64,000 bases of DNA from a virus. The DNA lies in the IMG/VR virus record IMGVR_UViG_3300036859_000816, positions 67,133 through 131,132 of that record. One strand, given 5' to 3'. The notes beneath the pieces were generated by a model, which was given only the letters and a program-made list of their open reading frames with translations, made no database searches and had not been told where the DNA came from. Positions 22,201 to 56,722 of the stretch are shown here, in pieces; within the stretch, counting starts at the first letter, position 1; every line of letters begins with the position of its first letter. The position numbers were made by a program, and so were the translations under genes.

Positions 22201-23096
22201 ATCGCCTTCTGCACGCGCTACGGGCGGCGCGCACGATCAACGAAGCGAGCCTTCGGGTCATGGATCTCGCGTTAGCGCCTCTGCGCGCTGACTCAATCGG
22301 GATCTACATCTACGAACCGAAGCTCCAAAGGCCCGCGGAGATTTACTTTCGCGGTGTGCCCGAACGCTTCATCTTTGAGTACGAACAGCTGGCAAGGGAT
22401 CACGATCCATTGCTGGAGCGTGTGTTGCAGACACGCGCGGCCGTGCGTGATGAAGACGTGTATCCCGGTGAAGCCTGGAATCGATCGTTCTTGTACCGCG
22501 AATTTGTCCCGCGTTATCGCACGAAACATGTGGTTGCGGCTCCAATCGTTGTCGGCAACGAAGTAGTTGGTACGCTACACATCGGTCGATTCTTCGATGA
22601 AGGTCGCTTTACGACGCGGGACAAAGAGACAGCCACCGAAATATGCCGCGCTCTAGCGAAGCAATGCGGCACGGAAAGTTCTGCATACGAGTCGGATCCC
22701 GCTCCGCGTTTACATGCCGACCGAGCTCGACTGCGGACGCAGTTGGAAGCCATTGAACGAACTGGTAAGGCGTTGCCCGAAGACCAAACTGCAATGATTT
22801 TTGACATGCTTAAGCACAATCAGATCGCACCGATTGATTGCCTGGACAACGGTGAGCGGCGCTACGTTCTCTTGCCGCGTTTTACAAACAAGAATCAGTT
22901 GCCCGTTTCGCTGACTGCGCGCGAACGCGCGGTTCTTCGATATGTTGTCCGAGGTGAAAGCAACAAAGCGATTGCGTCGGAGCTACACTGCTCCGTGAGC
23001 GCCGTGGGCAACAAAGTCAGTTCTATGATGCACAAGTTCGGCGTTTCTTCGCGCATCCAATTGATTGTGCTCGCAGCTGCCCACGCTAGCGATTGA
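22188..23096 (+). CDS. GAF-domain + LuxR HTH regulator
   Basis: HDP autoinducer-like/GAF region, VAAPIVVGNEVVGTL; C-terminal LTARERAVL...GESNKAIA. Confidence 0.85.
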   Translation: MSSLDRLLHALRAARTINEASLRVMDLALAPLRADSIGIYIYEPKLQRPAEIYFRGVPERFIFEYEQLARDHDPLLERVLQTRAAVRDEDVYPGEAWNRSFLYREFVPRYRTKHVVAAPIVVGNEVVGTLHIGRFFDEGRFTTRDKETATEICRALAKQCGTESSAYESDPAPRLHADRARLRTQLEAIERTGKALPEDQTAMIFDMLKHNQIAPIDCLDNGERRYVLLPRFTNKNQLPVSLTARERAVLRYVVRGESNKAIASELHCSVSAVGNKVSSMMHKFGVSSRIQLIVLAAAHASD

Positions 23097-24774
23097 CGCG
23101 ACCATTGGGCATGATGGGCCAGTGTCGTTGCGACGCCATGCGCAGGACGCTGCATTGCAGATCATTCACTTCACGATCGATCGTGAGATCGATGCAGCGC
23201 CAGTCGCCGTCCCACGCCTGAGATATCAGAGAGCGGTTGCCCGCCAACATGCCCCATGTGTTGAGCGGACAGGGAAACAGTTCGGTGCAGTTCGTCAGCG
23301 GAATGGGCTCGGATAGCACGTTGAAAGGCTGAAGCAAACTGCGACCGACGAACCGGGTCATACCGAACGCATCGAGCATGCCGTAAGCGTCCAACAGTGT
23401 CGGCAGTACATCGAGATGCGTCACATCATCGTTCGCGTGGGCTCGTAATGCTGCCGCTTGCTGCGCGCTCAGTGCACCGTTGCCGAAGGCAATCCAGCCG
23501 GGTACATGGATCTGTTCGTCGTAGAGGTTCTGCCCATGGTGAATCGCCTTGCGCTCACCGAAGGCTTCGCCGTGGTCGCTCGTGAACACGACGAGATACG
23601 GCTCGGACGCAACCTTCGCCATGAAGGCTCGGACAATTCGTGCAACAGAGCGGTCCTGCTCGACGATGGCATTCAGGTAAGCATTGTGCAGCTCGTTGAG
23701 CCTGGTCCACCGGGCCACATGAGTATACGGACGATAGGGTGCGTGCGCGTCATCGACGAAGTACGGAGCGTGCGTGCCGCTCAAATGAGCGACGAGAAGC
23801 ACCGGGAGCTCGATGGCTGGCAGCTCACGCTCGATCTTCGCCGCCAGCATGCGGTCCATGCCGAGCTCGATCGTCTCGCCCATGTTCGCAATCGGTCGGC
23901 CGGCTACGTCGCTGTCGATCTCGAACGAATCGACGACATTCCGCAGGTTCGTCCGAGCAAAAAATGATGGACTCTGCGTCGACCAGTACAGCACGCGCGG
24001 GCGATGCGGACCCAGAGCGTGCAAGTAATCGAAGACAAGCGGCGTAGACGCGATGTGCTGCACAGAACCGACCGGTACGTGACCGCTCAGTAAAGCATTG
24101 ACGGAGATAGCCGTGTAGCTGCTCACGCTGCGCAGTTGACGCAGTTCGACGCGATCGGGAATCGCTTGTGCCGTTTCCGACGCCGTCGCACGCGCGCCGC
24201 GCATCACGTAGTCGCTCGCACGCACACTTTCGTCCACGATGAGCAGTACGTTCGGAAACTGCGTGATCCGACTTTGCAACGGCGGTATCGACGCAGAAAT
24301 GTGCGAGTGGACGTCGTGGGTGCGAAGCAGCACTCGAAGCGACCATAGAGCACGCACATCCGGCGGCGCCAAGGTAACCGACGGCAGAAGCACGAGAGAG
24401 CCGACCAGCGTACCTGCAACCGTCAGCACTATCGCCGTAGATGACCTGGGCACACTGCGCAGTAGCCAGTATTCGCTCACTGCGCCGAAGATGGCTGCGA
24501 GTACAACCCAAGGCAGGAGCGCGATCACGATCGGCTCAATGTCCGACCACATCAATCGTGCGCACACGGCCGCCTGATCGTCCACGAACGTCCGGTAAAA
24601 CCGAAAGTATTCAAGCTGAACTACCGCAAGCGAGCTCGCGGTCAACGCCAATGCGCCGCGCGCTACTGGTCGCCGCACAAGCAGTGCGAGCAACATCCAG
24701 AGTGTAACGCTCGCGCAGGCTCCGACCGTCGTTCCGAGTCGATCTGGGTGGCAACCGCGCAATACCAGCTGCAT
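23086..24774 (-). CDS. membrane-bound sulfatase-like / phosphoethanolamine- or phosphoglycerol-transferase (alkaline phosphatase superfamily); start uncertain
   Basis: N-terminal TM helices; NVLLIVDESVR, SYT nucleophile, HAPY, FTSDHGE, HG..LYDEQIHVP. Confidence 0.8.
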   Translation of the reverse strand: MQLVLRGCHPDRLGTTVGACASVTLWMLLALLVRRPVARGALALTASSLAVVQLEYFRFYRTFVDDQAAVCARLMWSDIEPIVIALLPWVVLAAIFGAVSEYWLLRSVPRSSTAIVLTVAGTLVGSLVLLPSVTLAPPDVRALWSLRVLLRTHDVHSHISASIPPLQSRITQFPNVLLIVDESVRASDYVMRGARATASETAQAIPDRVELRQLRSVSSYTAISVNALLSGHVPVGSVQHIASTPLVFDYLHALGPHRPRVLYWSTQSPSFFARTNLRNVVDSFEIDSDVAGRPIANMGETIELGMDRMLAAKIERELPAIELPVLLVAHLSGTHAPYFVDDAHAPYRPYTHVARWTRLNELHNAYLNAIVEQDRSVARIVRAFMAKVASEPYLVVFTSDHGEAFGERKAIHHGQNLYDEQIHVPGWIAFGNGALSAQQAAALRAHANDDVTHLDVLPTLLDAYGMLDAFGMTRFVGRSLLQPFNVLSEPIPLTNCTELFPCPLNTWGMLAGNRSLISQAWDGDWRCIDLTIDREVNDLQCSVLRMASQRHWPIMPNGRVNR

Positions 24775-24811
24775 TGCAGCGAACTGTGTGACGAAGAGAA
24801 TCCAGCGAAAC

Positions 24812-25036
24812 TTAGACGGAGTGCAGTTTTGAACCCTCTTCGTTGCCGTAGAGATCCATTGCATACACCGCTGCCGTCTCAAGAAACTTCGACAGCTTGA
24901 CCATCTGTTCGCGCAGCGCGTCTCCGTCCTTGTGTTCATGAGACCATCGCGCCTTATCGATGAGCTGCTGCGCGGAGCGTAGCACGTCGGTCAGCGCGTG
25001 GTCCGTTTTAGCTTCAAACGTTTGGTTGTTTTTCAT
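24812..25036 (-). CDS. hypothetical protein
   Basis: GAGGG RBS, short helical ORF. Confidence 0.45.
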   Translation of the reverse strand: MKNNQTFEAKTDHALTDVLRSAQQLIDKARWSHEHKDGDALREQMVKLSKFLETAAVYAMDLYGNEEGSKLHSV

Positions 25037-25537
25037 GTGTGGTGTTCCCTCTGCGTTGTCCGCATTTCTTGCAGCGGTATCGGTTAGGTGGATTGACTCG
25101 TTCCGGGCACGCGCATCGCCAGAAACCCACCGCCTTGAGCTGTTTTGGCTCCGCAGTCTTCACGGTTGCGTCCACCTGTTCATCTGCCCAATTCAGAATT
25201 GCAGAACGTCGCGCGCGCTTGTGCTGTTGTCGTCGGTGTCGGGACATCAGGTCACCGCCGCGGATATCATCGTTTGCATCTCCGCTTCGCTGACTTCGCG
25301 CCCGTACGCGCCGCGACGATCCTTCTCGACTCGGTAACGATCGTCGCCAATGTGCCTGAAGATCAGGTCCGCTTCGTGCCACAGAAACGACCGCGCACGC
25401 GATTGCGTTTGCCGATCATCGTATTCTTCCACTTGTCCTCGGCGCACTATCTTAATGAGAGCCATGATTTACCTTTACTTATCGCGTGGGCTCATGGTGG
25501 AATTCCCTCGTCCCATCCGTACGTGTTGGGCCCATCG

Positions 25538-27097: not shown

Positions 27098-29290
27098 TCA
27101 CGTCCCTCTTTCGTGGGAGAACAGCTTCGGGAAGTTGTCGCTCAACTGACGGTGATACCGGCTCAGAATGCGCTCAGCAACCCGCCACGTCGTTTCGTCG
27201 CTGTCCTCGAGACCCGTCGCACCGACGAGGTGCATGATCGCCGCGTCGGGCTTATTGAAGCCAGTGAAGTCTTTCTCCACGGCGCCATCGCAACGCGCGA
27301 GCATGTGATCGAGCGCAGCGCGAATCGTTACCTTGAGCGCTGCCGTCAGCTCCGGCTCGGGCCGGGCAACCTTCGCACGCTCGCGACCCGCAATTGCCGC
27401 CACGCGTTCCCGAGCATGCTCACGCTCCGCCGCTGCTGCCGCTTCTTCGCGCGCCTTCATGCGCGCCGCCAGCTCCTCATCCGTTTCGGGCACAAGGCCG
27501 CCATCGGCCGTGCGCGGCGGCAAGGCCGGCAGCGTGCGCTCGATCGCCGCCTCAATGAGCTGCATCTTGCGGACGAGCAAATCATTGATATGTCGCTCGA
27601 GAGCGTGATCGCTAACGAGGCACGTGTACAAAACACTGTCGGCATCCTGACCGATGCGATGCAGCCGGTCTTCGGCCTGTAGATTCAGAGCCGGCGTCCA
27701 ATCCCGATCAACGAAAATGGCGTGCGCGGCGTGCGTCAATGTCAAGCCGACGCCACCGGCCGGAATAGTGACCGCGATGCCCTTGTATTCGCCGGACTGA
27801 AACGCGCGCGCCACGGCTTGCTTGTCCTGCGTGTCGCCCGTGATAGCGAGCCAGCCCTCGCGCGCGGCCAGCGTATCGATGGGCGCACGGTGCGCCGAGA
27901 AAACCACGAGCGAGACGCCCTGCTCCTCGTAATCCTCGACCATCGAGAGCAGTGCGGGAATGCGTTGCGAAGCCAAGGCAGCGCGAATCGCCGAGAACGC
28001 CTCGAACGGCGGCAGATGACCAGCCTGGATTTCGTCTTGATGCTCGAGCCACAGCTCATCGAGCTCGTCTCGCAGCGTACCGTCCAGACCGTTGACCACT
28101 AGAGTCGCGCGGCGCTTCGGCGGTAGATCCTTGAGCACCTCGGCTTTGGTTCTTCGCAACATGACGCGACGGAGCTTGTCCGGCACGTACGGAGCCGGAC
28201 CAGTGAACTTCCACACGACAACGCCGCGCGCGACCGATTCTTGATAGCCACCGAAGTCGCGAACGAAGCCCTTCCAGCCACCAAACACGTCGCGATCCAT
28301 GCCGCCCGCTTGTAACAGGCCAAAGAGGTCCTGTGGGCGCGTCAGGAGCGGTGTACCAGTAAGAAACAGCGTTCGCGAGCAGAGCTTGCTGAGCGTGCGC
28401 ACCTTCTTCGAGCGCGCCGCTTTGGGATTCTTGGTTCGGTGCGCCTCGTCGACAATGAGCGTCACGCCCGCGAACTTTGCCGCGATGGCGGCGGCCGCGA
28501 TCGGAGCGGGCTTGCTCTTGTCGACCGGTAACAAATCGGCCGGCAGGACGTCGTAATTGGTGACGACGACTTCGCCCTCGGCGGGCACCAAGGCGCTCGA
28601 GTCAGCTCGCCGACCTTCGACGATGCGAACCGTCAAATCTGAGCGCCAGCGTGCCGCTTCGTCGCGCCACGTGTACTTGACTGCTGCGGGCACGATGACG
28701 ACGGCTCGCGCGCGTTCGGGAAGAGCTACGAGCGCCTGTAGGGTCTTACCAACTCCCATGTCGTCGCCCAGCAACGCGCGCTGCCGAGCCGCGATCCATT
28801 CGACGCCCTCCACCTGGTATGGGTAAGCGCCCACAGCGCGGGCTCGGTCAGCGGCGGCAGTGACAGCCGGATCGGCCTGAACGACCGTCAGCTCCGGCGC
28901 TATCGTCAATCCGAGCTTGCCGGCAAGCTCCAAAACACGCGTTCGGTCAGCGGCATCGAGCGAGACCGTCCAGCAGCCCTGTTCGGCGCGCCAGCGGGCG
29001 CCTGGCATAGCGCGCAGCAGGTTCAGGGCGTCTGGGTCGTACGGCATGATGACGCGCCCATCGTCCGTCAGCTGCCGCGGCGGCGCACCCGTCTCGTCCG
29101 CCAAGCCAAGCTTGCGGGCGCAGGCCGCCGACGAGCAGCGGGTCTTCCAGCGTCCGTTGGCCAGGAAAATAAAGCCATGGCCAGCGGCAACGGATTGCTG
29201 ACAGCTGGCGCAGTAGCCCGGATAGCTGTTGCGGCGCGCATTGCGCACGGTCTGTTGACTTTCCATGTTGGCTTGTACGGTCGATGCCAT
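27098..29290 (-). CDS. SNF2-family (SMARCAL1/HARP-like) helicase
   Basis: PYQVEGV, GDDMGVGKT Walker A, DEAH, LTGTP, MLRRTK, GVGLTLT, QAEDRLHRIGQ. Confidence 0.92.
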   Translation of the reverse strand: MASTVQANMESQQTVRNARRNSYPGYCASCQQSVAAGHGFIFLANGRWKTRCSSAACARKLGLADETGAPPRQLTDDGRVIMPYDPDALNLLRAMPGARWRAEQGCWTVSLDAADRTRVLELAGKLGLTIAPELTVVQADPAVTAAADRARAVGAYPYQVEGVEWIAARQRALLGDDMGVGKTLQALVALPERARAVVIVPAAVKYTWRDEAARWRSDLTVRIVEGRRADSSALVPAEGEVVVTNYDVLPADLLPVDKSKPAPIAAAAIAAKFAGVTLIVDEAHRTKNPKAARSKKVRTLSKLCSRTLFLTGTPLLTRPQDLFGLLQAGGMDRDVFGGWKGFVRDFGGYQESVARGVVVWKFTGPAPYVPDKLRRVMLRRTKAEVLKDLPPKRRATLVVNGLDGTLRDELDELWLEHQDEIQAGHLPPFEAFSAIRAALASQRIPALLSMVEDYEEQGVSLVVFSAHRAPIDTLAAREGWLAITGDTQDKQAVARAFQSGEYKGIAVTIPAGGVGLTLTHAAHAIFVDRDWTPALNLQAEDRLHRIGQDADSVLYTCLVSDHALERHINDLLVRKMQLIEAAIERTLPALPPRTADGGLVPETDEELAARMKAREEAAAAAEREHARERVAAIAGRERAKVARPEPELTAALKVTIRAALDHMLARCDGAVEKDFTGFNKPDAAIMHLVGATGLEDSDETTWRVAERILSRYHRQLSDNFPKLFSHERGT

Positions 29291-29309
29291 GGCTATGTTC
29301 CTAACGAAC

Positions 29310-29323
29310 GATACCATGGTATC
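29310..29323. promoter_or_regulatory. perfect 14-bp palindrome GATACCATGGTATC (candidate operator / -10 region)
   Basis: palindrome in the divergent intergenic region upstream of the helicase. Confidence 0.5.
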
Positions 29324-29666: not shown

Positions 29667-29885
29667 TTACCGCTTAGTGCTCCAGAGCGCCTTGAGTTGC
29701 TTGCGCCGGCCACCGAGCTTTGCGTGTTCAGCTTCGACGAGCGAGCTCAATAGCGCGCTGTAGCTCACACGAATTCCGGTCTTACGTCGCGCCTCGAATG
29801 CGAGCTGTTCGAGCATTTCCCAAGCTTCGGGAGAGAAACGAACGCTCATCGTGTGACGCGCGGAACCATTGTTTTCGCTGTTCAT
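29667..29885 (-). CDS. ribbon-helix-helix-like regulator
   Basis: MSVRFSPEAWEMLEQLA...VSYSALL. Confidence 0.6.
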   Translation of the reverse strand: MNSENNGSARHTMSVRFSPEAWEMLEQLAFEARRKTGIRVSYSALLSSLVEAEHAKLGGRRKQLKALWSTKR

Positions 29886-29895
29886 GCCGGTTACA

Positions 29896-29924
29896 AGCGT
29901 ACTGATCCGACACCATGGTGTCAA
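29896..29924 (-). promoter_or_regulatory. sigma70-type promoter overlapped by perfect palindrome GACACCATGGTGTC
   Basis: minus strand TTGACA-N17-TACGCT, ~10 bp upstream of the RHH ATG; palindrome at 29909-29922. Confidence 0.65.
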
Positions 29925-29928
29925 GGTG

Positions 29929-30519
29929 CTATGATAACCAGTGCCAGATGGCGCCGGCCCAACCAGCGTAACCACGCGCCGTCGGATGGATGCCGTCCGG
30001 GCCGCGAGGTATCACAAGCTGCTCGGAGGGGAAGTAATCGCGGCTCGGGATCTCGGCCTTGAGCATTGGCACGATCCCATTGGTTGCTTTGGGCAATGTC
30101 GGTGGACCGATCCAGATGATGAACTGCGGCGATGCCTGCATCAACAATACGACGATCCGGCGCAGGGCTGCGCGCTGGCGTTCGACGGCATCGGCGCCTT
30201 GAAGGTACTCGTCGTTCGTGCCGAGCGAGACCAAAATCATATTCGGCCGAAAACTGGCCAGCAGATTCTGGAGGTCACTGCTTGCTGCCCATTGATCGAT
30301 GCGCGTGCCGACTTTGGCCAGCGACGCAAAAGCAATGCGCTCGCGGCCGGACAGGTCTCGGAGATACGGAGCTAGACCGACAGCAAGACTATCGCCGATG
30401 AGTAACAATCGTGTCTCGCCTGGACGCAGCCGCGGTGCCCAAATGAGCCGCACGAGCCCATAGCCCGCAGCGAGTCCGAGGCCCAAATAGATCCAACGAC
30501 GGTTGGCTGACACGGCCAT
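29929..30519 (-). CDS. SGNH/GDSL hydrolase with N-terminal TM anchor
   Basis: LIGDSL block I, SLGTND block III, DGIHP block V. Confidence 0.88.
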   Translation of the reverse strand: MAVSANRRWIYLGLGLAAGYGLVRLIWAPRLRPGETRLLLIGDSLAVGLAPYLRDLSGRERIAFASLAKVGTRIDQWAASSDLQNLLASFRPNMILVSLGTNDEYLQGADAVERQRAALRRIVVLLMQASPQFIIWIGPPTLPKATNGIVPMLKAEIPSRDYFPSEQLVIPRGPDGIHPTARGYAGWAGAIWHWLS

Positions 30520-30622
30520 CAGGGTAATGCCCGGGAGTGATAGAGCGCAAAAATTATGCGCACTTGCGGCGATAGTCCGGTCTCAGGCCGTTGAGGCAGC
30601 CATCCAACAACTGGCGTCACCG

Positions 30623-31166
30623 GTCTCAACTACAAGGCCGTTGAGCAGGCGTTGCGATCTGAGCGCTGCCGGTCTTAGCGCGGCGTGCTTCGGCGGTCTC
30701 AACTACAAGGCCGTTGAGCGGGCGTTGCGATAGCGGGGCCGACCAGCGCAAAGTCGCCTTGTTCAACCGTCTCAACTACAAGGCCGTTGAGCAGGCATTG
30801 CGATTGGAGCCTTGCGAATACACTCTTTCGCGATGCGAAGCTGGTCTCAACTACAAGGCCGTTGAGCAGGCTTTGCGATTTTCTTGCATGGAAGTACCTC
30901 GCGCCATTCACCCAGGTCTCAACTACAAGGCCGTTGAGCAGGCTTTGCGATCTTGGACTTGAAGCGGTGGCAGACCAAGCTGCGGTTGGTCTCAACTACA
31001 AGGCCGTTGAGCAGGCTTTGCGATCACTCCTCCTCGTCCTCGAGGTCCTCGTCATCGTCGTCTCAACTACAAGGCCGTTGAGCAGGCTTTGCGATCGCGC
31101 GCGGAAGTCGCGACGTTGCTGCGCTGCAGCGTCTCAACTACAAGGCCGTTGAGCAGGCTTTGCGAT
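30623..31166 (-). CRISPR. CRISPR array 1: 8 repeats of 36 bp, 7 spacers of 35-39 bp, plus a degenerate trailer repeat at ~30580-30600
   Basis: repeat (plus strand) GTCTCAACTACAAGGCCGTTGAGCAGGC(G/T)TTGCGAT at 30623, 30696, 30769, 30844, 30916, 30989, 31060, 31131. Confidence 0.97.
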
Positions 31167-31168
31167 AG

Positions 31169-31181
31169 ATTGTCAGAGATC
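31169..31181 (-). promoter_or_regulatory. boxA-like antitermination element in array 1 leader
   Basis: minus strand GATCTCTGACAAT, 2 bp before the first repeat. Confidence 0.5.
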
Positions 31182-31379
31182 GTTGTGGATTCGCGGACTT
31201 GTTGTCCGATTTGCGAGCGGTGCCGCACATGACGCGGTTGGTCGTTCCGCGCCACCATCAACCTAACTCACTACTCACCGACAATCGAGCCTTATTTGGC
31301 TCATGCGAGCACCTACGGAGCATCCGTCGCCACCGGACCGCTCGAAATGTTTGGCAGACCCGGGTTATGCTCCGTGCGT

Positions 31380-32030
31380 ATGGCCGATTGGGTCACCAAC
31401 AGCTGTGGCGGCACGCGCTGGCGCACATTGCCCAACGGGCTCATTGAAGTTGAGGGCGAGGGCACGCCGGCCTATGCACCGACGTCTGCCGAATTCGCGA
31501 ATCTCCAGCGTACCTGGACTAATTGGCAGGGCTTGTTCCGTTCGGCGTCGCGACAGTACGGCGTACCGGTCTCGTGGGTCGTCGCTATTGCCACGAACGA
31601 AACCGGTCCATGGTCAAAAGATCCTGCCGGTCAAGCGAGCATTATCTCGTTCGACCAGGGCGTCGGCATCATGCAGATCACGAAGTATCCCGGCACGACC
31701 GTCGAACAGATGCTCGTGCCGGCGCAGAACATTGCGACGGGAGCGAGCATCCTGCGCAAGCACAGTGATCGATACGGCGGCGAGTTGCCGTATGTCGCCG
31801 CTGCGTACAATGCCGGCGGCGTCTACTGTAGTCCCGGCAACAATGAGTGGAACTTTCGCACGACGGGTAACTATCCGCGCCGCGCAGTGCAGTACAACAA
31901 TGCCGCGCTCATGTACCTGCCGTTGGGCGCTACGTTCGCATCAATGCTCGGTTGGTCATTCGCTGGAGCAATTGTTGCGGGCGTGGGCTGGTTTGGTCTG
32001 CGATGGTGGCGACAACTACAAGGCCGTTGA
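31380..32030 (+). CDS. lytic transglycosylase (SLT domain) with C-terminal TM anchor
   Basis: AIATNETG catalytic Glu, GVGIMQI, NIATGA..L, AAAYNAG; hydrophobic tail then WWRQ. Confidence 0.88.
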   Translation: MADWVTNSCGGTRWRTLPNGLIEVEGEGTPAYAPTSAEFANLQRTWTNWQGLFRSASRQYGVPVSWVVAIATNETGPWSKDPAGQASIISFDQGVGIMQITKYPGTTVEQMLVPAQNIATGASILRKHSDRYGGELPYVAAAYNAGGVYCSPGNNEWNFRTTGNYPRRAVQYNNAALMYLPLGATFASMLGWSFAGAIVAGVGWFGLRWWRQLQGR

Positions 32031-33697
32031 GCGGGCGTTGCGATCCTGTCGTCCAAACTGAAATTACAGGTTATTGCACGTGGTCTCAACTACGAAGCCG
32101 TCGAGCGGGCGTTGCTATCTCTTGAACTCTGCGGCTTTGAGCAGCCAGTTGTCGTCTCAACTACAAAGCCGTCGAGCGGGCGTTGCGAGCTGATGCCATT
32201 GACGTTTGTCGTATCCTTATACGTGTCTCAACTACGAAGCCGTTGAGCAGGCGTTGCAATCGCACGCGCGCGGGACGCTTGGCGAACGAGCTGGTTGTCT
32301 CAACTACAAGGCCGTTGAGCAGGCGTTGCGATTCGCATGGTGACTCGTGCCCGACAGTTAAAGGGTTCGTCTCAACTACAAGGCCGTTGAGCAGGCGTTG
32401 CGATTCGAGGGTTTAGTCGATGCAACACCTGGCGTGGCGGTCTCAACTACAAGGCCGTTGAGCAGGCGTTGCGGTCTGGGTGGCGCGAGTTCAAGTGGTC
32501 TCAACTACAAGGCCATTGAGCGGGCGTTTGCGATAAGGACTTTATTTTCGACAATATCGAAGAAGCGATTGTCTCAACTACGAAGCCGTTGAGCAGGCGT
32601 TGCGATACAGTGTGCAACCTGAAGCAGCGGTCTCAACTATAAGGCCGTTGAGCGGGCGTTGCGATAACTGCAACGACGCAGTGGATACTCTCATGCAGTA
32701 GTCTCAACTACAAAGCCGTCGAGCAGGCGTTGCGATATGAGCGTCCACTTGCCGGTGCTGACTAACAGCCGCGCGTCTCAACTACAAGGCCGTTGAGCAG
32801 GCATTGCGATTCGTTGCAGCAACCGTGCAGCAATGCTGCACCAGGTGGTCTCAACTACGAAGCCGTCGAGCAGGCGTTGCGATTGGTGATTCAAATACCG
32901 CACATCCATGGTTTGGGTGTCTCAACTACAAGGCCGTCGAGCGGGCGTTGCGATCGAGTGGGCTGACTGCTCGCGATCGGACACTTCGATGTCTCAACTA
33001 CGAAGCCGTTGAGCAGGCGTTGCGATTGGCGGACCAACTTTAGGGCGAGGACGTCCGATTCTGCGTCTCAACTACGAAGCCGTTGAGCAGGCGTTGCGTC
33101 AGGTAATCCTGGTCTCAACTACGAAGCCGTCGAGCGGGCGTTGCGATCTAGTTCGGAGCATCCACCGTCTCAACTACAAGGCCGTTGAGCAGGCATTGCG
33201 ATGTTGGCAGGAGCGTGCTTCCACCCATGGCGTCTCAACTACGAAGCCGTCGAGCAGGCGTTGTCGATGGCGCAAGCTTCGAGGGCCTGGTGCACGCAGT
33301 CGCCGTCTCAACTACAAGGCCGTTGAGCGGGCGTTGCGAATCCGGGTGCGTAAACACCCGAGACCCTTTGCCGAAACCTGTGTCTCAACTACAAGGCCGT
33401 CGAGCGGGCGTTGCGATGGCCGGAAATGAAGAGTCCACCTAGACCTAGAGTCGCGGTCTCAACTACAAAGCCGTCGAGCGGGCGTTGCGATAGATCATCG
33501 ACGTGTCGGATGAACGGCGAGTGACAGTCTCAACTACGAAGCCGTCGAGCTGGCGTTGCGATCTTTTGCTTAGCCGACCGTCGAACCAGTTCAAACGTCT
33601 CAACTACGAAGCCGTCGAGCGGGCGTTGCGATATCGGCTCGCCGAAATCAGCAAAGGAAATACGTCTCAACTACGAAGCCGTTGAGCAGGCGTTGAT
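32009..33697 (-). CRISPR. CRISPR array 2: 25 repeats (first and last degenerate), 24 spacers of ~11-41 bp
   Basis: same 36-bp repeat family with variants GTCTCAACTAC(A/G)A(G/A)GCCGT(T/C)GAGC(A/G)GGCGTTGCGAT, starts from 32009 to 33664. Confidence 0.97.
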
Positions 33698-33706
33698 GCG
33701 TCTTAA

Positions 33707-33719
33707 ATTGTCAAAGATC
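33707..33719 (-). promoter_or_regulatory. boxA-like antitermination element in array 2 leader
   Basis: minus strand GATCTTTGACAAT between the effector stop codon and the first repeat. Confidence 0.6.
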
Positions 33720-33743
33720 GAGCGCGAGAAACGTCGGTTTCAT

Positions 33744-35801
33744 TCATTCTACATCGTTCGCATCATTTTCCAAGTCCTCACGGCGGGCACTTCCCGGCGA
33801 GCCGTTGGTGCCGAAGCGCGCAAAGTACCGATTCAGCATAACACGACAGGCATTCAAATCGCGGTCCCAGTTGTTGCCGCAGCCGGCGCAAACCTGCACG
33901 CGTTCTTCAGGCTTCTCCCAGTCCTTATTTACATAACTACAGATGTGACATTCTTGCGTCGAACTTTCGCCCTCGGCTTTGCACGCTCGCGATCCGAACG
34001 CTTCAACAATGATGGAACGCAGTTCGCTTGGAGCGGCGATGGCTCGGACGCGATTCGTGAATTCGCTCTCCGGCTCCTCTTCGGGTTTGCATTTGGTCGC
34101 GAACTTTCGCAGATCAATATCATCGACGACGGCGACCGCATACTTGTCTGCTAACCGTCGAGCCCATTTGCGATACAAATCGTGACGATGCGCCAACGTA
34201 CTGTCTCGCTGATGACTTTCCCATTGATAGAGGTGCTTGTTCTTGTGACGCCACCACTCTAGGTAAACCAGTAACTGTTCGGTCTCGTCGGTAATGCCTT
34301 GGGATGCGGCCCAGTTCGTTATGTTTGCGTACGCATCGAATAGATCACGACGAGCCTTGAGCCGTCCGCTCTTCCAACTAGCCCACAGCCGGTTGACGAC
34401 GTCGCGATCGGGAAACGCTTCCGATACCCAGCGGCCAACAAGGCGTGCGAGCTTGCCATGCTGGCGCCACTTCATCATGTACTCCGTGTCTTTCTTCACC
34501 CAAGCCGGCACCGAATGCTTCTTCATGAAGTCGGCGAGATTCTTCCGTGCCCGCTCGAAGTGTTCATCAGCAAAGCCTTGAAGCCTGGAGCATTGTAGGA
34601 AACGTTCGCGTAACTCATAGGGCAACGCCAACTCCTGTTCATTGCCCTGATCATCGACGCAGTAGACCACGCGAATACCGTGTGGCAAGAGCCGCCAACC
34701 AAAGTCGAAGGCTAAGGTTTTCGAGCCCGCCACCGCTGTTTCGTGGAATTGTCCGGATTCGAGAGTGAGCTGCAACTGGTAGCGCGTTTGCGTACCCACG
34801 CGGCTGATCTTGATCCAGGCCCACATCACCGCAGCATCGTCCGGTAAGGGTCGATGCATGAGCACGCGAAACTCTGCCCAAACCGGCTTACCTGCGTTCG
34901 ATCCAATTCGGATCCGAACGGTGGTTTCCATGTGCCGCCGCCCTGGTCGATTCTTCTTCCAACCGAGCACGATGGTCTTCTTTTTTTGCGTCTTACGGTA
35001 TCGGACTACGGCTTCAACATCATGCGGAAATGGATCAATCTGGAGCATTTTGCTGCGGCCAGAGATGATATCGGCTACAGGTTCGCGATGTAGTTGCACT
35101 CCGATGCGGCACGGATCGGTGTAATGACGATGGCGCGGATCCTTCTTGCTCTTTTTCGCCGCTTCGAACGCCTGATCGACGAGCAAGTACGTTCCATTGT
35201 ACAGCCCACTATCGGCGCGCGTACGTTTGATTTGTTCGGTCGTCTCCATTTCGATCTTGGTCTTTGCTTTCCAGAAGTCCGGCCAGTTCTCCTCCTGGAG
35301 CATCTGTGTCAAAACCTCGCGGCGCACCCGTTCCTTGACTCGCGGTCCGGTGCTGCCAGCTGCGTGACAAGCGGCTTCAAAGCGTTGCTTAACTTCGTCA
35401 TCTGCGGGACGAAGTATCTTGCTGATCGTTTGACGCGCGTCTTTGACGTCTTGCCAGGCCTGCTTGTGCTGCTCTTTTAGTTTGCGCACTGCTGCATTCA
35501 AATCAGCGTCGACCACCCGCTTGCGTTTAGCCTTGCGCTGGGATTGAATTTTCTCGCGTGTCTCTTCAAGCTCTCTGTCGACCGCTTCGTAGGCGAGCTC
35601 TAGCGTCTCGAAATTCGGGAACATGGCCGTGCGCAATTCCCGAAAGCGGCGGCGGCGCTCACGCTCGATGTCGATGAGATTGTTGTAGTAGTTGTGTGCA
35701 GCCTGAATCTGCTCGTTAAATTCAGCAGCACCGGATAGGATCTGTGTGCGACAACGAAAGGGCCAGATGCGAGAGGGAACGTTCGATGTTTTGCGTTTCA
35801 T
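33744..35801 (-). CDS. cas12m: type V CRISPR effector, Cas12m (V-M / V-U1)-like, ~685 aa
   Basis: adjacent to array; AHNYYN.L...ER coiled REC, GLY.GTY, RIGVQL, MHRPLP, RuvC-I AFDFGWR, RuvC-II VVDDIDL, CHIC...CAGC zinc finger, RuvC-III WDRDLNAC. Confidence 0.8.
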   Translation of the reverse strand: MKRKTSNVPSRIWPFRCRTQILSGAAEFNEQIQAAHNYYNNLIDIERERRRRFRELRTAMFPNFETLELAYEAVDRELEETREKIQSQRKAKRKRVVDADLNAAVRKLKEQHKQAWQDVKDARQTISKILRPADDEVKQRFEAACHAAGSTGPRVKERVRREVLTQMLQEENWPDFWKAKTKIEMETTEQIKRTRADSGLYNGTYLLVDQAFEAAKKSKKDPRHRHYTDPCRIGVQLHREPVADIISGRSKMLQIDPFPHDVEAVVRYRKTQKKKTIVLGWKKNRPGRRHMETTVRIRIGSNAGKPVWAEFRVLMHRPLPDDAAVMWAWIKISRVGTQTRYQLQLTLESGQFHETAVAGSKTLAFDFGWRLLPHGIRVVYCVDDQGNEQELALPYELRERFLQCSRLQGFADEHFERARKNLADFMKKHSVPAWVKKDTEYMMKWRQHGKLARLVGRWVSEAFPDRDVVNRLWASWKSGRLKARRDLFDAYANITNWAASQGITDETEQLLVYLEWWRHKNKHLYQWESHQRDSTLAHRHDLYRKWARRLADKYAVAVVDDIDLRKFATKCKPEEEPESEFTNRVRAIAAPSELRSIIVEAFGSRACKAEGESSTQECHICSYVNKDWEKPEERVQVCAGCGNNWDRDLNACRVMLNRYFARFGTNGSPGSARREDLENDANDVE

Positions 35802-35840
35802 GGCGTCGGTGTGGCTACAATGAGCCCACAACAACCCAGC

Positions 35841-35858
35841 CGTCAAATATTTTTGACG
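35841..35858. promoter_or_regulatory. inverted repeat CGTCAAA-tatt-TTTGACG upstream of the effector gene
   Basis: palindrome containing a TTGACG -35-like hexamer on each strand, ~40 bp upstream of the ATG. Confidence 0.4.
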
Positions 35859-35922
35859 ATCACGCAACTTACTCGACTAATTGCCGATATTTGGCCGTAC
35901 AACCGTGTCGGCACTGAGGCTC

Positions 35923-36705
35923 TCAGAGTGAGATTTTACGACGCGACCAAGCCCAATACGCACCCATGCCGATGGCTGCGAAAACCGCGCCGCCGAGAAT
36001 CGGTCCGAGCCAGCGCGCGCGAGCGAACCACGGAGCGAGGTAGGCCTGCCAGATCAGCGGCGCGAGATCATGGTGCCCAGCGTGACTGTAGTCATTGCCG
36101 GCACCGTCGGCGCTGCCCGGGACCACGTAATCGGCCCAATAGAGGGCACCCATGCGCCACCATCCGCCGCTCGCTGCCGGCGCTGGTGCCTTGGGCATAA
36201 CCGACCGCGGACGGCGGCCCGTGGCCGCCTGGACGGCATTCCAGACCGATAGCCAGCTCTTGCGCCCGGTCAAGTAGTCAGCGCCACCGCTGTTGGATGC
36301 CGTGGAGACGAACAGTTTGTCTCCGCGCGCGGCGTCGATGCCCATGGCAACGTACCCGCGTTTGGGCGGGTCGCTGAAGCCGGAGAACGTAGCATCCGAC
36401 AGAACCATGGCGCTCAGGCGCGCTCGATCGGCATCGACGGCTGCGAGCTTGTTCAAGAGGCCATGGCCGGCGCTGTAGGCCGCGAGCGCGATCTGATCGA
36501 CCTGGTCGAGCTCGACTTTCGCATATGTCCGAACCAACGCCGGCAGAATGCGACCAGTCCCGTCGCGCAGCTGTTCGGCTAAATTTGAAAAGTAACTCGA
36601 GGCCTCGTGCACGATCGGAACAATGCGCACGTCACGGCCGAACCAATTAATCTGCTTGAACGTATCACGCAGAATGATCGGTCCGGCGAAGAAAACGAGA
36701 TCCAC
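35923..36705 (-). CDS. alpha/beta-hydrolase-like protein with C-terminal TM anchor
   Basis: ALAAYSAG nucleophile-elbow-like motif, LSDA, late His (SHAGHH); hydrophobic tail then WSRRK. Confidence 0.55.
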   Translation of the reverse strand: MDLVFFAGPIILRDTFKQINWFGRDVRIVPIVHEASSYFSNLAEQLRDGTGRILPALVRTYAKVELDQVDQIALAAYSAGHGLLNKLAAVDADRARLSAMVLSDATFSGFSDPPKRGYVAMGIDAARGDKLFVSTASNSGGADYLTGRKSWLSVWNAVQAATGRRPRSVMPKAPAPAASGGWWRMGALYWADYVVPGSADGAGNDYSHAGHHDLAPLIWQAYLAPWFARARWLGPILGGAVFAAIGMGAYWAWSRRKISL

Positions 36706-36722
36706 GTTTCAACGCAACGGGC

Positions 36723-37460
36723 TCAGAGCTTTCTGATGATGATGTTGACTTCGGGCGTTTCGATGTCTGCTGTGTCCAAAATATTGCGCGCAACGATGTC
36801 GATAAAATCGTTGAACACGAGATCGAACTTCTGGACAACGGTTAGAGCATGAAATGCATCGACGGTATCGAATGTCTCGATCTGGCTCGTATTCACATCG
36901 GTCGTGTTTCCAGCTAGAGCCCCATTTAGATCGACAGTCATTTCAACGTCTGTCGGAACCACAGGAGCTGGTTCTTGTCCGGAACTGATGAGTAAGCTCA
37001 ACGCCGCTGTAACTTCGAACGGTGCGGGTGGTCCCTTGTACGTCATGCGACCGGTATTCACGTCGACGATAAACCCCGATGCGGGACTCAGATTGAAGAC
37101 CGACCATTGACCGGGACTTGCTGATGTTAGGCGCTCCCAACGGTTGGCTGAGAGTATGTCGAACTTTGGACTGGTCAGAACGTTGGTACCTTGCCAGAAT
37201 CCCGAGAGCGCACCTGCGCTGGACATCAGAATCCAGCGTCCCGGACCGCCAAGCGGCTGCACAACGAGCGTACCTAACGGCGCTGCAGTGCTGAGCTTAT
37301 CGAGCACGTAAAACGATCGGTTTTCGATCACGAAACAGAGCGACCCGTTGGGTAGCTCATTAACGATGATGTTCTGCAGACTGTCGCTATCGTTGAAGCC
37401 TAGAACGCTTGCGCGTGGTGCGAGCAATCGCAGGGCCGTGTCAGCAAGTCGGTCAGTCAT
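36723..37460 (-). CDS. fibre/receptor-binding-like paralog 1 (MTDRL...GPGRW N-domain + variable beta-rich C-domain)
   Basis: shared N-terminal ~80 aa with four other ORFs. Confidence 0.65.
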   Translation of the reverse strand: MTDRLADTALRLLAPRASVLGFNDSDSLQNIIVNELPNGSLCFVIENRSFYVLDKLSTAAPLGTLVVQPLGGPGRWILMSSAGALSGFWQGTNVLTSPKFDILSANRWERLTSASPGQWSVFNLSPASGFIVDVNTGRMTYKGPPAPFEVTAALSLLISSGQEPAPVVPTDVEMTVDLNGALAGNTTDVNTSQIETFDTVDAFHALTVVQKFDLVFNDFIDIVARNILDTADIETPEVNIIIRKL

Positions 37461-37505
37461 GAATTTAGCTCCAATCGATCAGTCACAGCATGCTTTCAGA
37501 GTCGT

Positions 37506-38270
37506 TTACTCGAACGGTGTGGCGACGAGATGCAAACGGGTTACAACCATGGATTCGGATACTGGCTCGAGTCCGAGATCGGAATTAGTGATGACCGGAC
37601 GAACCACGTCACCAGCAGTCAAAATTACCGACCGAGCGGCTGCCAGCGATTGAAACGGAGCAATGTTCGTTTCCACTGCTTCGGTACCATCATTGTTTGT
37701 CGTAAAGAGACGGTCGTGTACTCCACCGGTAAATAGGTCAGATGTGAGTCCGAGTTGGAAAAGGCTCGAAGTGTTGAGCTCCATACTGACGTACGATTGC
37801 AGCAGATAGCGGCGCGTGGGACCGAGATATGTGAGCGTTCCTTGGAATTGATCCAAGCTAAAAACGGGTGCAAAGACACCGGCGTAAATAACCGTCGGCG
37901 GCTGCGATGTTGGTCCTGCTACCCAAGTCTCAGCTGGGGACGGAGCAGCAACCGCCAGCGACGGTCCCGCGAAGTTCGTCGCAATGAGAAACACCTCGGC
38001 TGACAGTTGCGCCTGCGATGAGCCAGACGCGAGCAAGATCCAACGACCTGGCCCGCCAAGCGGAATGATTACTACGCCAAGAACTGCGGCGGAGCTGTTG
38101 TCGAGCTTGTCGAGCCGATAGAGGCCCTCGGTTGAATTGACCCAACAGAGCGCACCATTCGGCAGCTCGTCGGTGATGACGTTTTGCAGGCTGTCGTGAT
38201 CGCCAAAGCCTTCGGCGTTCGCGCGTGGCGCGAGAAGTCGAAGGTCACCGTCAGCAAGTCGGTCGGTCAT
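37506..38270 (-). CDS. fibre/receptor-binding-like paralog 2
   Basis: MTDRLADGDLRLLAPRA...LQNVITDELPNG...GPGRW. Confidence 0.65.
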   Translation of the reverse strand: MTDRLADGDLRLLAPRANAEGFGDHDSLQNVITDELPNGALCWVNSTEGLYRLDKLDNSSAAVLGVVIIPLGGPGRWILLASGSSQAQLSAEVFLIATNFAGPSLAVAAPSPAETWVAGPTSQPPTVIYAGVFAPVFSLDQFQGTLTYLGPTRRYLLQSYVSMELNTSSLFQLGLTSDLFTGGVHDRLFTTNNDGTEAVETNIAPFQSLAAARSVILTAGDVVRPVITNSDLGLEPVSESMVVTRLHLVATPFE

Positions 38271-38286
38271 GACAAATTCCTCACTT

Positions 38287-38488
38287 TTACATTACGGCGG
38301 TAACGATGTAATCAGTCGAAGCCTTGATCAGGATGTAATACGATTCAAATTCGGTGACGTAAACATAAGCATCCGTCATTCAGCGGATCGGTGATGATGT
38401 TCTGCAGACTGTCTCCGTCGCCGAATCCAGTAAGTACGGCTCGCGCGGCGAGGTGACGGTACGCAACAGCTCCAAGTCTCTCAGTCAT
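38287..38488 (-). pseudogene. frameshifted, truncated copy of the MTERL N-terminal domain
   Basis: MTERLGAVAYRHLAARA...LQNIITDPLNDGCLC, then an extra T; removing it restores YVTEFESYYIL, followed by an early stop. Confidence 0.7.
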
Positions 38489-38514
38489 GGTTCAAATCCT
38501 CACGGTCGAGCGGT

Positions 38515-39255
38515 TTATTCGAATGGTGTCACAACCAAATGCTGACCGTTCACTTCGATGCCGCCATCTGGGTCAGCTTCGTTCTGGTTTTGGTATGCAA
38601 CTTGAATCGTATCTAGGTCGCTCAGCAGAATTATTCGCTCCGCGGCCAGAACAAAAAGATTCGCGGTGCCCGTTGCGCTGATCAAGGCTTGTTCGGCAAA
38701 TGGCTGATCACTGCCGATTCGATCACCGCTGACGTCTGCCGTTATTCCAATGTCGTCACCATTGGGCGCTGCGAGATTCGCGGAAACCTCGATTTCGAAC
38801 AACCGCGGCGGTCCGTGATACGTCAGCACGCCGCTCGACAAGTCAGCGGTGAATATTCCGTTGGCTGGTAACGTGGCCGAGTATGCAACGGGAGGCGGCG
38901 GGAAAATGTTACCGGCTGTCCAGGTTCCAACCGGTGCGGACGGTACAACCGGATTTCCCCAGGCAACAACGTTCAACAATGTCTCAGCGGAGAACTGCGT
39001 TGCAAACGATCCAGCGAAGACCAGAATCCAGCGTCCCGGGCCCGCGAGCGGTTGAACGATGAAACCGGCGACGGGTGCGGCCGTGGAACGCCGATCGAGC
39101 AAGTAATATGCTTTCTCAACGACGACGTAACAGAGACACCCGTCGTTGAGCGGGTTGGTGATGATGTTTTGCAGGCTATCGCCGTCGCCGGTTCCGTTGA
39201 GGACGGCTCGTGCACCCAAATGACGGTACGCAACAGCTCCAAGTCTCTCGGTCAC
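38515..39255 (-). CDS. fibre/receptor-binding-like paralog 3
   Basis: GTG start VTERLGAVAYRHLGARA...LQNIITNPLNDG...GPGRW. Confidence 0.65.
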   Translation of the reverse strand: MTERLGAVAYRHLGARAVLNGTGDGDSLQNIITNPLNDGCLCYVVVEKAYYLLDRRSTAAPVAGFIVQPLAGPGRWILVFAGSFATQFSAETLLNVVAWGNPVVPSAPVGTWTAGNIFPPPPVAYSATLPANGIFTADLSSGVLTYHGPPRLFEIEVSANLAAPNGDDIGITADVSGDRIGSDQPFAEQALISATGTANLFVLAAERIILLSDLDTIQVAYQNQNEADPDGGIEVNGQHLVVTPFE

Positions 39256-39362
39256 GGCGTATGGTGGGCCTTTCTCGGGACTTTTTTGTTGTCCGTTGGC
39301 GCCATCATTGATGGTCGCCCGCGTGCTGTCAAAAAAATCGCTTCTTTTCGTCTCGAGGCGGC

Positions 39363-39581
39363 CTACCGCACCCGTTCCCAGCGCATACTCGCCTGGCAAT
39401 CCACGCGTTCCCAGCGCTGTTGGGTCACACAGTCGGCCATAAATTTGTCGGTCTTCATGTGGCTGACGAAGTAGCCCTGGGCCTCGCGTTGCGTCCGACC
39501 GTAGAAGGTGTGTTGCACGACCGGATAGTCCGTGCCCGCGCCGGCAGGTTCGTAAATGTCAACGATCAATTTCCAGAGCAT
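39363..39581 (-). CDS. hypothetical protein
   Basis: start overlaps the stop of the M15 peptidase gene. Confidence 0.5.
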   Translation of the reverse strand: MLWKLIVDIYEPAGAGTDYPVVQHTFYGRTQREAQGYFVSHMKTDKFMADCVTQQRWERVDCQASMRWERVR

Positions 39582-45550: not shown

Positions 45551-46203
45551 GGTCGCCTCCACTGCTTTGCAAAAGCGCCGCGCGTTGTAGCGGTACCGCG
45601 AACACTGTGTCGATGTTTCAATGTGCTGGGCAAATCGATGCGGTGCTCTACAAGCGCCGGAGCATGAATTGCAATCTGACGACCGCGTTCGATGATTGCG
45701 CAACTCAGCGCTTGATCTAAGTACTGGTGTTGATGTGGCGGCTTGCGCGTGAACCACTGAGCGCATAGATCCCGGATATCTGGCAAGGCTTGGCGAGGAA
45801 ATACAATTGCCTGCGAGTACGGCAACGTATTCTTGTGCCACCTGGTTTCCGTCGAAGGACGGCCCGCTTTACGATCGACGTCTTTCCAACCACGACCACC
45901 CGGATCGAAGAGCCAACCTGCGCCGAAACGCGGGTCGTGCACGGCGTCCCAAGTCATGATGTTGTGCACGATGTGTTCATTGACATCGACGTCATCTTCG
46001 AGCCGCAGACACAATTCTGCGCCCGACTCGAACAATTGATCCAAGGACGCCAGTACATGATCCGCGAGTGAGCGCGTTGGCGGATGAAAAATCACTTCGT
46101 AGTTCGTGCCAATGTCCGAAGCTTCAATGGCCGCGCGGACTGTTTCCCAGCCCGGTCTGCCCGGCGCATGACAGGCTTGAACGACGACGGCCAGACTGCG
46201 CAT
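45541..46203 (-). CDS. glycosyltransferase-like protein (paralog of the C-half of 44246-45550)
   Basis: AIEASDIGTNY, LRLEDDVDVN, YSQ, D.ALS, HAP.LVEHRIDLPS. Confidence 0.65.
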   Translation of the reverse strand: MRSLAVVVQACHAPGRPGWETVRAAIEASDIGTNYEVIFHPPTRSLADHVLASLDQLFESGAELCLRLEDDVDVNEHIVHNIMTWDAVHDPRFGAGWLFDPGGRGWKDVDRKAGRPSTETRWHKNTLPYSQAIVFPRQALPDIRDLCAQWFTRKPPHQHQYLDQALSCAIIERGRQIAIHAPALVEHRIDLPSTLKHRHSVRGTATTRGAFAKQWRRPCS

Positions 46204-46217
46204 AAGCTATTTCTAGC

Positions 46218-47294: not shown

Positions 47295-47295
47295 G

Positions 47296-48147: not shown

Positions 48148-48154
48148 GTAATCC

Positions 48155-48883: not shown

Positions 48884-48893
48884 CGACGCTTGC

Positions 48894-49865
<972 letters not shown>

Positions 49866-49945
49866 GCCGCGGATTTTGCCGTCGCTTGCAAGCGGATGTC
49901 CAATTTTCGACGCAATTGGTCATGTACTTCGGTATGGTGGCTTCA

Positions 49946-51928: not shown

Positions 51929-51944
51929 AACAAGGGAAACTTTC

Positions 51945-53279: not shown

Positions 53280-56722
<3,443 letters not shown>

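Follow-up and report, generated by a model that had tools for sequence, protein, structure and literature searches.

The stretch of DNA examined here (the window, 64,000 nt) comprises positions 67133 to 131132, the right half, of a linear 131,132-bp virus record from soil in IMG/VR (IMGVR_UViG_3300036859_000816), and it carries a gene, cas12m, for a type V CRISPR effector, followed by two CRISPR arrays. The gene lies on the minus strand at 33744 to 35801 and encodes 685 amino acids (aa) from an ATG at 35801; a TTG at 35867, which would give 707 aa, is not favored. The 685-aa ATG form is the database protein P0001, an identical protein is encoded on a second contig, and the N terminus MKRKTS is invariant or nearly so among the 10 closest sequences. 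The first array downstream, array 2 (32009 to 33699, minus strand), starts 44 nt after the cas12m stop codon and consists of 25 repeats, each about 36 nt long by the repeat unit of 36 nt, with 24 spacers between them. After a gap of 842 nt follows array 1 (30623 to 31166, minus strand) with 8 repeats, of which the five on the leader side are identical, and 7 spacers of 35 to 39 nt. A preliminary description of this DNA had reported a minus-strand protein of about 685 aa directly upstream of a 25-repeat array and an 8-repeat array beyond it, and both statements agree with these coordinates.

Sequence comparison and predicted fold identify the protein as a Cas12m (type V-M, formerly V-U1). In a phmmer search of the PDB it matched the Cas12m chain 23vw_A with an E value of 1.9e-54 in three stretches spanning residues 45 to 678, as well as 23vu (UnCas12m4a; 1e-19), Cas12m2 (8hio/8hhl; 5e-17) and 8pm4 (5e-16); TnpB reached an E value of only 0.18. 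Indeed, the PADLOC model Cas12u1 covered residues 28 to 659 with model positions 18 to 530 of 533 (E, 1.9e-83). The only Pfam match was the zinc-ribbon TNB domain (E, 6.2e-6), the NCBIfam model guided_TnpB (NF040570) matched with an E value of 5.3e-7, and NF038281 gave 19.9 bits with a cutoff of 425. The TNB and guided_TnpB matches would be in line with a TnpB or another IS200/IS605-type transposon nuclease, an alternative named in the preliminary description. However, the guided_TnpB match amounts to 29.3 bits, far below the cutoff of 100 bits, and is confined to the C-terminal 120 residues, and the protein has 685 aa and a full recognition (REC) lobe and is encoded beside 33 CRISPR repeats. 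A TnpB or insertion sequence identity was rejected since the scores are below the family cutoffs and the gene adjoins an array; taken together with the related idea of a plasmid in place of a virus, discussed below, we consider this alternative extremely unlikely.

An AlphaFold2 model built on 50 sequences had a predicted local distance difference test score of 91.3 and a predicted template modeling (TM) score of 0.85. When it was compared with the PDB by Foldseek, the four top matches were all Cas12m (Cas12m2 and GoCas12m), with E values of 2.8e-24 to 5.3e-19 and target-normalized TM scores of 0.67 to 0.75; for the entries 8hhl and 8hio (Cas12m2) and 8pm4 (GoCas12m), the E values were 3e-24 to 5e-23 and the TM scores 0.72 to 0.75. 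Cas12f, TnpB, Cas12j and others followed at 7e-9 or worse. The preliminary description had placed the protein in Cas12m and had proposed structure prediction as a check; phmmer, PADLOC Cas12u1 and the predicted structure, whose best-fitting folds are Cas12m2 and GoCas12m, bear this out. Identity to the solved Cas12m chains in the fold alignments was 18%. Among 1.84 billion cluster representatives, 1,414 matched with an E value of ≤1e-30, the nearest being 46% identical, and by this measure the protein is a new sequence lineage.

The RuvC motifs AFDFGW, VVDDIDL and DRDLNAC start at residues 364, 558 and 646 and provide D366, D560 and D648, and the cysteines of the zinc finger are C618, C621, C638 and C641; the D-D-D triad and the CxxC...CxxC finger described earlier are thus confirmed. 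In the alignment, D560 corresponds to the catalytic glutamate in 23vw and 23vu, which are Cas12m chains of the DED type, and to D485 in Cas12m2, and D366 corresponds to a histidine of Cas12m2. D-D-D occurred in 1 of the 50 sequences of an alignment of relatives (A1), in 1 of 41 sequences made up of the query, 34 viral loci, five loci of bacterial metagenome-assembled genomes (MAGs) and one GenBank phage, and, of the best 150 cluster representatives, in 1 of the 143 that could be scored. The triads of the 143 scorable relatives were DED (71 sequences), NED (25), NDD (15), NGD (5), DAD (3), HDD (3) and about 20 other combinations. Published Cas12m triads are DED, NED, DND, HDD, HEK, HQK and NDD (PMC10442227, PMC11013384). 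D-D-D therefore appears to be a previously unlisted triad, which the supplementary Cas12m lists of PMC11013384 might contain; it is a new variant of minor weight.

What this triad means for the activity was considered next to the published data. Cas12m proteins with DED, HDD or NDD triads are described as binding DNA without cleavage of double-stranded DNA (dsDNA) and as protecting against plasmids and phages (PMC11013384), and binding without cutting is, by analogy, the default expectation for the D-D-D protein as well. If, instead, its RuvC were active, the protein would cut target DNA like an ordinary Cas12. Such an activity would agree with the three acidic positions that are kept, with the conservative nature of an E-to-D exchange, with the D-E-D triad of the closest relatives and with the suggestion of a 2026 preprint that the DED-type MvCas12m may be a nuclease (bioRxiv 10.64898/2026.09.14.751636). 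We consider it unlikely, since four of the eight proteins tested were D-E-D and D-E-D, H-D-D and N-D-D proteins were all reported to lack dsDNA cleavage (PMC11013384), and since conversion of HDD to DED failed to restore cutting (PMC10442227). Moreover, the triad varies freely across the 143 scorable relatives, which is not the pattern expected for an essential active site.

Set against the rest of alignment A1 (49 sequences; median, 617 aa), the protein is extended by 44 aa in REC (residues 126 to 169), by an 18-aa loop in the wedge (WED) domain (262 to 279) that was modeled with low confidence and by two segments in the helical insert of RuvC (456 to 473 and 491 to 513). The helical insertions in REC and RuvC that had been noticed before are thus present, and the REC and RuvC expansions are common to the closest relatives. 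The 150 best representatives have a median length of 648 aa, and 31 of the 143 scorable ones have at least 685 aa. The protein is larger than the characterized proteins of about 600 aa, but its length is not unusual for the family. Of the larger D-D-D lineage proposed in the preliminary description, therefore, the extra length is real, whereas the D-D-D triad belongs to this protein only and the closest relatives are D-E-D; the large size as a distinguishing feature is weaker than it was put.

When the entire 131-kb record was scanned for the 36-nt repeat by Hamming distance, the 33 copies of the two arrays were found, all on a single strand, and a search with a covariance model returned the same 33; the best match outside the arrays had an E value of 0.64. 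No solitary repeat handle was found outside the arrays in the 131-kb record by either method, and no reverse-complement repeat (anti-repeat) with up to 9 mismatches was present in the 131 kb, a limit that a short degenerate one could escape. Rfam gave no match with an E value of ≤0.1 in the stretch from 29800 to 36800. The same 36-nt repeat was found neither in a collection of viral contigs nor in a collection of genome contigs. The arrays hold 31 spacers, 26 of which are 31 to 41 nt long; in array 2, 19 have this length and five are short (11, 19, 22, 23 and 29 nt). Array 2 ends in a degenerate repeat (32009 to 32044) that scores 17.4 bits, compared with 31 to 42 bits for the other 32 of the 33 repeats.

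Read on the minus strand, the repeat has a 3' stem-loop followed by AC and a 5' part that is able to pair into the loop. Covariation was analyzed with 18 repeats, namely, that of the window and those of 17 viral loci (17 of 31 viral-locus arrays). Twelve loci were left out as they offered no full-length repeat (L003, L004, L006, L007, L012, L018, L020, L023, L025, L033, L035 and L043), L037 and L039 were left out as duplicates of another locus, and for L032 and L044, the repeat copy used lay elsewhere in the locus. The pairs counted join -23..-18 to -8..-3 in the stem and -28..-26 to -17..-15 in the pseudoknot. In 92% of the cells the positions could pair (29 to 43% in slid controls), all 9 pairs changed on both sides, and this was reached by none of 500 shuffles. 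The register overlaps the pairs of the PmCas12m CRISPR RNA (crRNA), -28..-26/-15..-17 and -23..-20/-3..-6 (bioRxiv 10.64898/2026.03.26.714355). As judged from this covariation, the 36-nt repeat forms a Cas12m-type pseudoknot. In 11 of the 33 repeats, one change gives a G-U pair in RNA of the minus strand and C-A in RNA of the plus strand; since, in addition, the degenerate repeat of array 2 is at the far end and a leader motif is shared, the arrays are read on the minus strand.

Both arrays have a leader on the minus strand, at 33700 to 33773 for array 2 and at 31167 to 31295 for array 1. Just before the first repeat of each array is the 14-nt motif CGATCT(T/C)TGACAAT, which we take to resemble the boxA antitermination element; it reads CGATCTTTGACAAT at 33707 to 33720 and CGATCTCTGACAAT at 31169 to 31182. 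The same motif precedes the arrays of four related viral loci, L003/L004 (in L003 at about 11968 to 11981), L007 and L009, and in L003 it stands before an array with different repeats, in a related virus with a Cas12m that is only 31% identical. A degenerate 9-mer of the motif occurs four times in the record, twice at the array leaders. A promoter-like TTGGAA-16-TAGAAT lies at 33746 to 33773, inside the 3' end of cas12m; the number of such elements in the scan was not above that in shuffled sequences.

Between the arrays, on the plus strand at 31296 to 32030, is a gene for an SLT lytic transglycosylase (Pfam SLT; E, 1.4e-10). Its product has a C-terminal hydrophobic segment, and its last codons and the stop codon are supplied by the degenerate terminal repeat of array 2. 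Since the stop lies in this repeat, we suggest that the two arrays were originally one and that the gene entered it by insertion or was captured by it.

The locus was present in four soil metagenome runs from four studies. Two of them showed no differences on the pieces listed, and the other two (runs X3 and X4) contained a variant strain, for which 14 differences were counted within 2.4 kb of cas12m. The sampled soils harbor two coexisting strains whose identity over the locus is about 99.4%. In the variant (run X3), 9 of 10 readable changed codons were synonymous, a pattern that at the codon level shows purifying selection on cas12m. On a variant-strain contig of the same run, the flank of the far end of array 1 is joined to a repeat and then to a different spacer, from which we conclude that array content differs between strains. 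These data bear on a further explanation, namely, that the locus is a decaying relic in which an inherited array and gene no longer act. Such a relic could account for the heterogeneous repeats and five shortened spacers of array 2, for the SLT gene that splits the arrays and for the adaptation genes that were not found. However, the 685-aa frame is intact, 9 of 10 codon changes between strains are synonymous, 32 of 33 repeats keep the handle at 31 to 42 bits, and both leaders keep the motif; the different spacer of the run X3 strain further argues that the arrays still change. A relic is, in our view, very unlikely.

The first spacer after the array 2 leader (33633 to 33663, minus strand) matches a gene of the virus itself, an MT-A70 DNA methylase gene (Pfam MT-A70; E, 5e-27), at record positions 24961 to 24991, outside the window. 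The match comprises 29 of 31 positions (maximum for shuffled spacers, 21), lies inside the coding region and is flanked by 5'-TTG on the nontarget strand; both mismatches are at synonymous third-codon positions and correspond to guide positions 3 and 6. A second spacer (32884 to 32918, minus strand) resembles the same gene 225 nt further on (record positions 25215 to 25249) with 25 of 35 nt, in frame and next to 5'-TTC; it translates to W*FKYRTSMVW, compared with WGFTYRTNMIW in the gene (score, 49; shuffle maximum, 35). From the two flanks, we infer a TTN-like protospacer-adjacent motif (PAM). Both spacers are read as guides that probably came from homologous genes of related viruses, and they lend indirect support, at the sequence level, to the idea of the preliminary description that the system is a repressor of competitors. 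A target is visible in this kind of comparison only if it has a conserved homologue in this virus.

The near-self match could also be taken as a sign of self-regulation: the guide nearest the leader would bind MT-A70 of the virus itself in spite of the two mismatches and adjust how strongly that gene is expressed. More boldly, one could suppose that the virus retains the mismatched guide in order to hold its own methylase at a tuned level of repression. The match of 29 of 31 positions beside TTG in the virus's own coding region and the place of the guide directly after the leader would favor this, and self-regulation would be tolerable because Cas12m does not cut. However, both mismatches fall within the first six PAM-proximal positions, which would occur by chance in about 3% of cases [(6/31)x(5/30)], and type V effectors are generally least tolerant of mismatches there. 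The position of the two mismatches therefore looks like escape from a guide and not like tuning. Moreover, the other MT-A70-like spacer is mismatched at 10 positions and contains a stop in frame, which is what a foreign homologue would be expected to show, and solitary repeat handles are absent elsewhere in the 131 kb. Self-regulation is thus an improbable explanation of this spacer.

The other comparisons of the spacers yielded no further targets. Among GenBank phages, matches were obtained only for the low-complexity spacer 31025 to 31059 and are treated as chance. This spacer is a run of acidic codons that translates to DDDEDLEDEEE; many actinophage genes and unrelated metagenome contigs match it spuriously. 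Spacer and array DNA had no match in 72,556 plasmids; the best matches of spacers were 16 nt in 42 Cas12m loci and 15 nt in 53 MT-A70 loci, and in the related records G001 and G006, searched in full, the lowest E values were 0.48 to 0.69. A candidate for spacer 32119 to 32153 from a translated search was rejected since it is out of frame with the only long open reading frame (ORF) at that place. Relatives of the protein are encoded at five bacterial MAG loci (Gemmatimonadales, Pirellulales, Polyangiaceae twice and Roseiflexaceae); naming a host from them was rejected since identities of 25 to 29% are too distant.

Taken together, we consider it probable that the locus encodes a system that binds DNA without cutting it and that is aimed at related viruses. 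A 685-aa Cas12m would act with guides from two minus-strand arrays, each behind its own homologous leader. The arrays would be transcribed on the minus strand, and each 36-nt repeat would fold into the Cas12m pseudoknot handle. Self-processing, noncleaving binding, the PAM and a role in competition are all modeled on characterized Cas12m proteins. By this analogy, the transcript would be processed by Cas12m itself into crRNAs that each comprise repeat plus spacer, with no trans-activating CRISPR RNA (tracrRNA) needed. The complex would then find dsDNA with a 5'-TTN-like PAM, form an R-loop and stay bound, and thereby block transcription or replication without cutting. The likeliest targets would be related viruses that coinfect or superinfect the same soil host, and the resident virus would avoid its own newest guide by the two synonymous changes in the PAM-proximal seed of MT-A70. 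A more specific version, which we put forward as tentative and rather doubtful, is that the newest guide is the record of a fight with a sibling virus: it would silence the MT-A70 gene of the relative, and the resident would have escaped via the synonymous seed changes. If this were true, a noncutting CRISPR system would drive measurable synonymous seed-escape evolution between co-occurring strains of soil viruses.

Several observations weigh against binding without cutting aimed at related viruses, or against parts of it. The best-scoring PADLOC model is labeled Cas12f/V-F (2.1e-86, residues 28 to 479 only); we tentatively read this label as a naming overlap, and no solved Cas12f chain was among the phmmer matches at E values up to 10. 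The D-D-D triad retains three carboxylates, so that nuclease activity would be compatible with the sequence. Array 2 has a partly decayed look, with repeats that differ from the consensus at 0 to 7 positions and with five spacers of 11 to 29 nt. The TTN-like PAM comes from two sites in the virus's own genome, which are not true targets, and 29 of the 31 spacers have no target found, a search for protospacers across a whole collection not having been made. In addition, the evidence that the record is viral consists of its IMG/VR label, shared genes and the estimate by CheckV, and a profile search of the record gave no match to the terminase (PF03237) or to the HK97 capsid (PF05065).

The lack of terminase and HK97 capsid matches and the strong enrichment of V-M systems on plasmids (PMC11656645) could indicate that the element is a plasmid, which is the second half of the alternative judged extremely unlikely above. 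Against this stand the viral class in IMG/VR, a completeness of about 85% estimated by CheckV and the synteny of record positions 50 to 67 kb with a block of L003/L004 (39 to 81% protein identity), one of which comes from a 138-kb IMG/VR record rated 100% complete. In addition, the array DNA has no match in 72,556 plasmids, and the most conserved syntenic protein falls into Atlas clusters labeled 89 to 100% viral, which is a lead only. We thus regard the DNA as probably viral. Among 20 large ORFs compared with PHROGs, no virion hallmark was found except for one weak tape measure-like match (2.2e-6), and the record looks like a little-known viral lineage. Since the Cas12m of L003/L004 is only 31% identical to that of the virus and is placed elsewhere in the genome, the Cas12m cassette moves or is replaced within one viral lineage.

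Cas1, Cas2 and Cas4 (PF01867, PF09827 and PF01930) gave no match with an E value of ≤1 in the record, which is about 85% complete, whereas control genomes responded, and Cas1 was absent from all five related viral records searched. The lack of cas1, cas2 and cas4 reported for the window accordingly holds for the 131-kb record, including the part outside the window. Loci without these genes are normal for V-M/V-U systems (PMC11013384).

Just upstream of cas12m, on the minus strand at 36723 to 39399, are three tandem paralogous genes (245, 254 and 294 aa), which have an N-terminal region in common (129-nt repeat, 74% identity) and no Pfam match; they may encode fiber or receptor-binding proteins. 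Collagen-like Gly-X-Y coding repeats with periods of 9, 18, 27, 54 and 81 nt are found at 55040 to 56166 and 49393 to 49553, within a 611-aa ORF, which fits a fiber or spike protein. Genes for DNA methyltransferases and glycosyltransferases are numerous (window, 4253 to 6022 and 44246 to 53240; record, 24324 to 25517) and include an MT-A70 and a glycosyltransferase-methyltransferase fusion. A SNF2 helicase (27098 to 29317) and a sulfatase-domain protein (23086 to 24939) are also encoded.

With respect to what is known, the locus does not change the understanding of how V-M systems work, but it adds a well-documented natural virus that carries a DNA-binding, probably noncutting CRISPR effector. 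The set of guides is unusually large for a virus-borne V-M system, 31 spacers compared with 8 in the one published phage case, and the two spacers hint for the first time at what such guides target, namely, a conserved gene for a methylase in related viruses. The D-D-D triad and the extra REC, WED and RuvC segments may be of interest to those who engineer compact scaffolds for CRISPR interference or base editing.

The bacterial and plasmid V-M systems (MmCas12m2, 8hhl/8hio; GoCas12m, 8pm4; MsCas12m; PmCas12m) belong to the same family by sequence and fold. The virus has in common with them the 36-nt repeat, the same pseudoknot register and the lack of a detectable tracrRNA-like anti-repeat and of adaptation genes, and its inferred TTN-like PAM resembles TTN of Cas12m2 (PMC10442227) and YTN of PmCas12m (bioRxiv 10.64898/2026.03.26.714355). 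It differs in the length of the protein (685 aa, compared with about 577 to 614 aa), with its longer REC, extra WED loop and longer RuvC helical insert; in the D-D-D triad (DED, HDD or NDD in characterized V-M proteins); and in being virus borne with two arrays and 31 spacers. In a tblastn search, a match was found on a plasmid of Allomeiothermus silvanus (E, 1e-29; 26% identity), which is presumably the MsCas12m gene.

A V-M system on a virus is not new in kind, virus- and plasmid-borne systems being already in print. According to a 2024 review, V-M is also found in some prophages (PMC11656645), and MvCas12m of the myxophage MV-1 was called the first Cas12m in a bacteriophage (bioRxiv 10.64898/2026.09.14.751636). 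Going by the published description, MV-1 likewise encodes a V-M effector beside an array, without cas1, cas2, cas4 or a tracrRNA, and a role in virus-virus or virus-host conflict is likewise proposed there (bioRxiv 10.64898/2026.09.14.751636). However, MV-1 is described as a temperate phage from wastewater biofilm with a 610-aa D-E-D protein and 8 spacers for which that preprint reports no protospacers (bioRxiv 10.64898/2026.09.14.751636), whereas the virus described here is from soil and has a 685-aa D-D-D protein, 31 spacers in two arrays and two spacers related to a methylase gene.

Cassettes of Cas12m plus array are in fact common in viral contigs: 42 IMG/VR loci encode relatives with 20 to 31% identity, and in 28 of the 42 an array lies within 350 nt downstream. 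In at least one GenBank phage the gene is mislabeled as a transposase. This is virus Rctr197k (GenBank KX853510.1; Caudoviricetes, 197 kb), which at locus L109 (GenBank KX853510.1, 110803 to 114219) encodes a relative that aligns with 90% of the query at 27% identity (E, 1e-42) and has a D-E-D triad. The only annotation of this gene is "similar to transposase," and it is directly followed by an annotated CRISPR repeat region of 1.5 kb, whose repeats fit the repeat model of the virus weakly (about 22 bits). Rctr197k thus appears to hold an unrecognized V-M system in the public record.

Two other kinds of system are related more distantly. Cas12j (CasPhi) and the mini-arrays of huge phages are likewise compact, single-effector type V systems of viruses without an adaptation module, and they likewise probably act against competing elements. 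However, Cas12j belongs to a different Cas12 branch (Foldseek E values of 1.3e-5 to 7.4e-5; TM score, 0.25), and CasPhi reportedly cuts DNA. TnpB of IS200/IS605 has the RuvC and zinc-ribbon (TNB) core in common with the virus protein, but the fold similarity is far weaker (E, 3.9e-6) and the sequence match is C-terminal and below the cutoff. TnpB is also described as lacking the REC2 insertion that is present in Cas12m (PMC10442227), and where TnpB has its omega-RNA, the locus of the virus has a CRISPR array.

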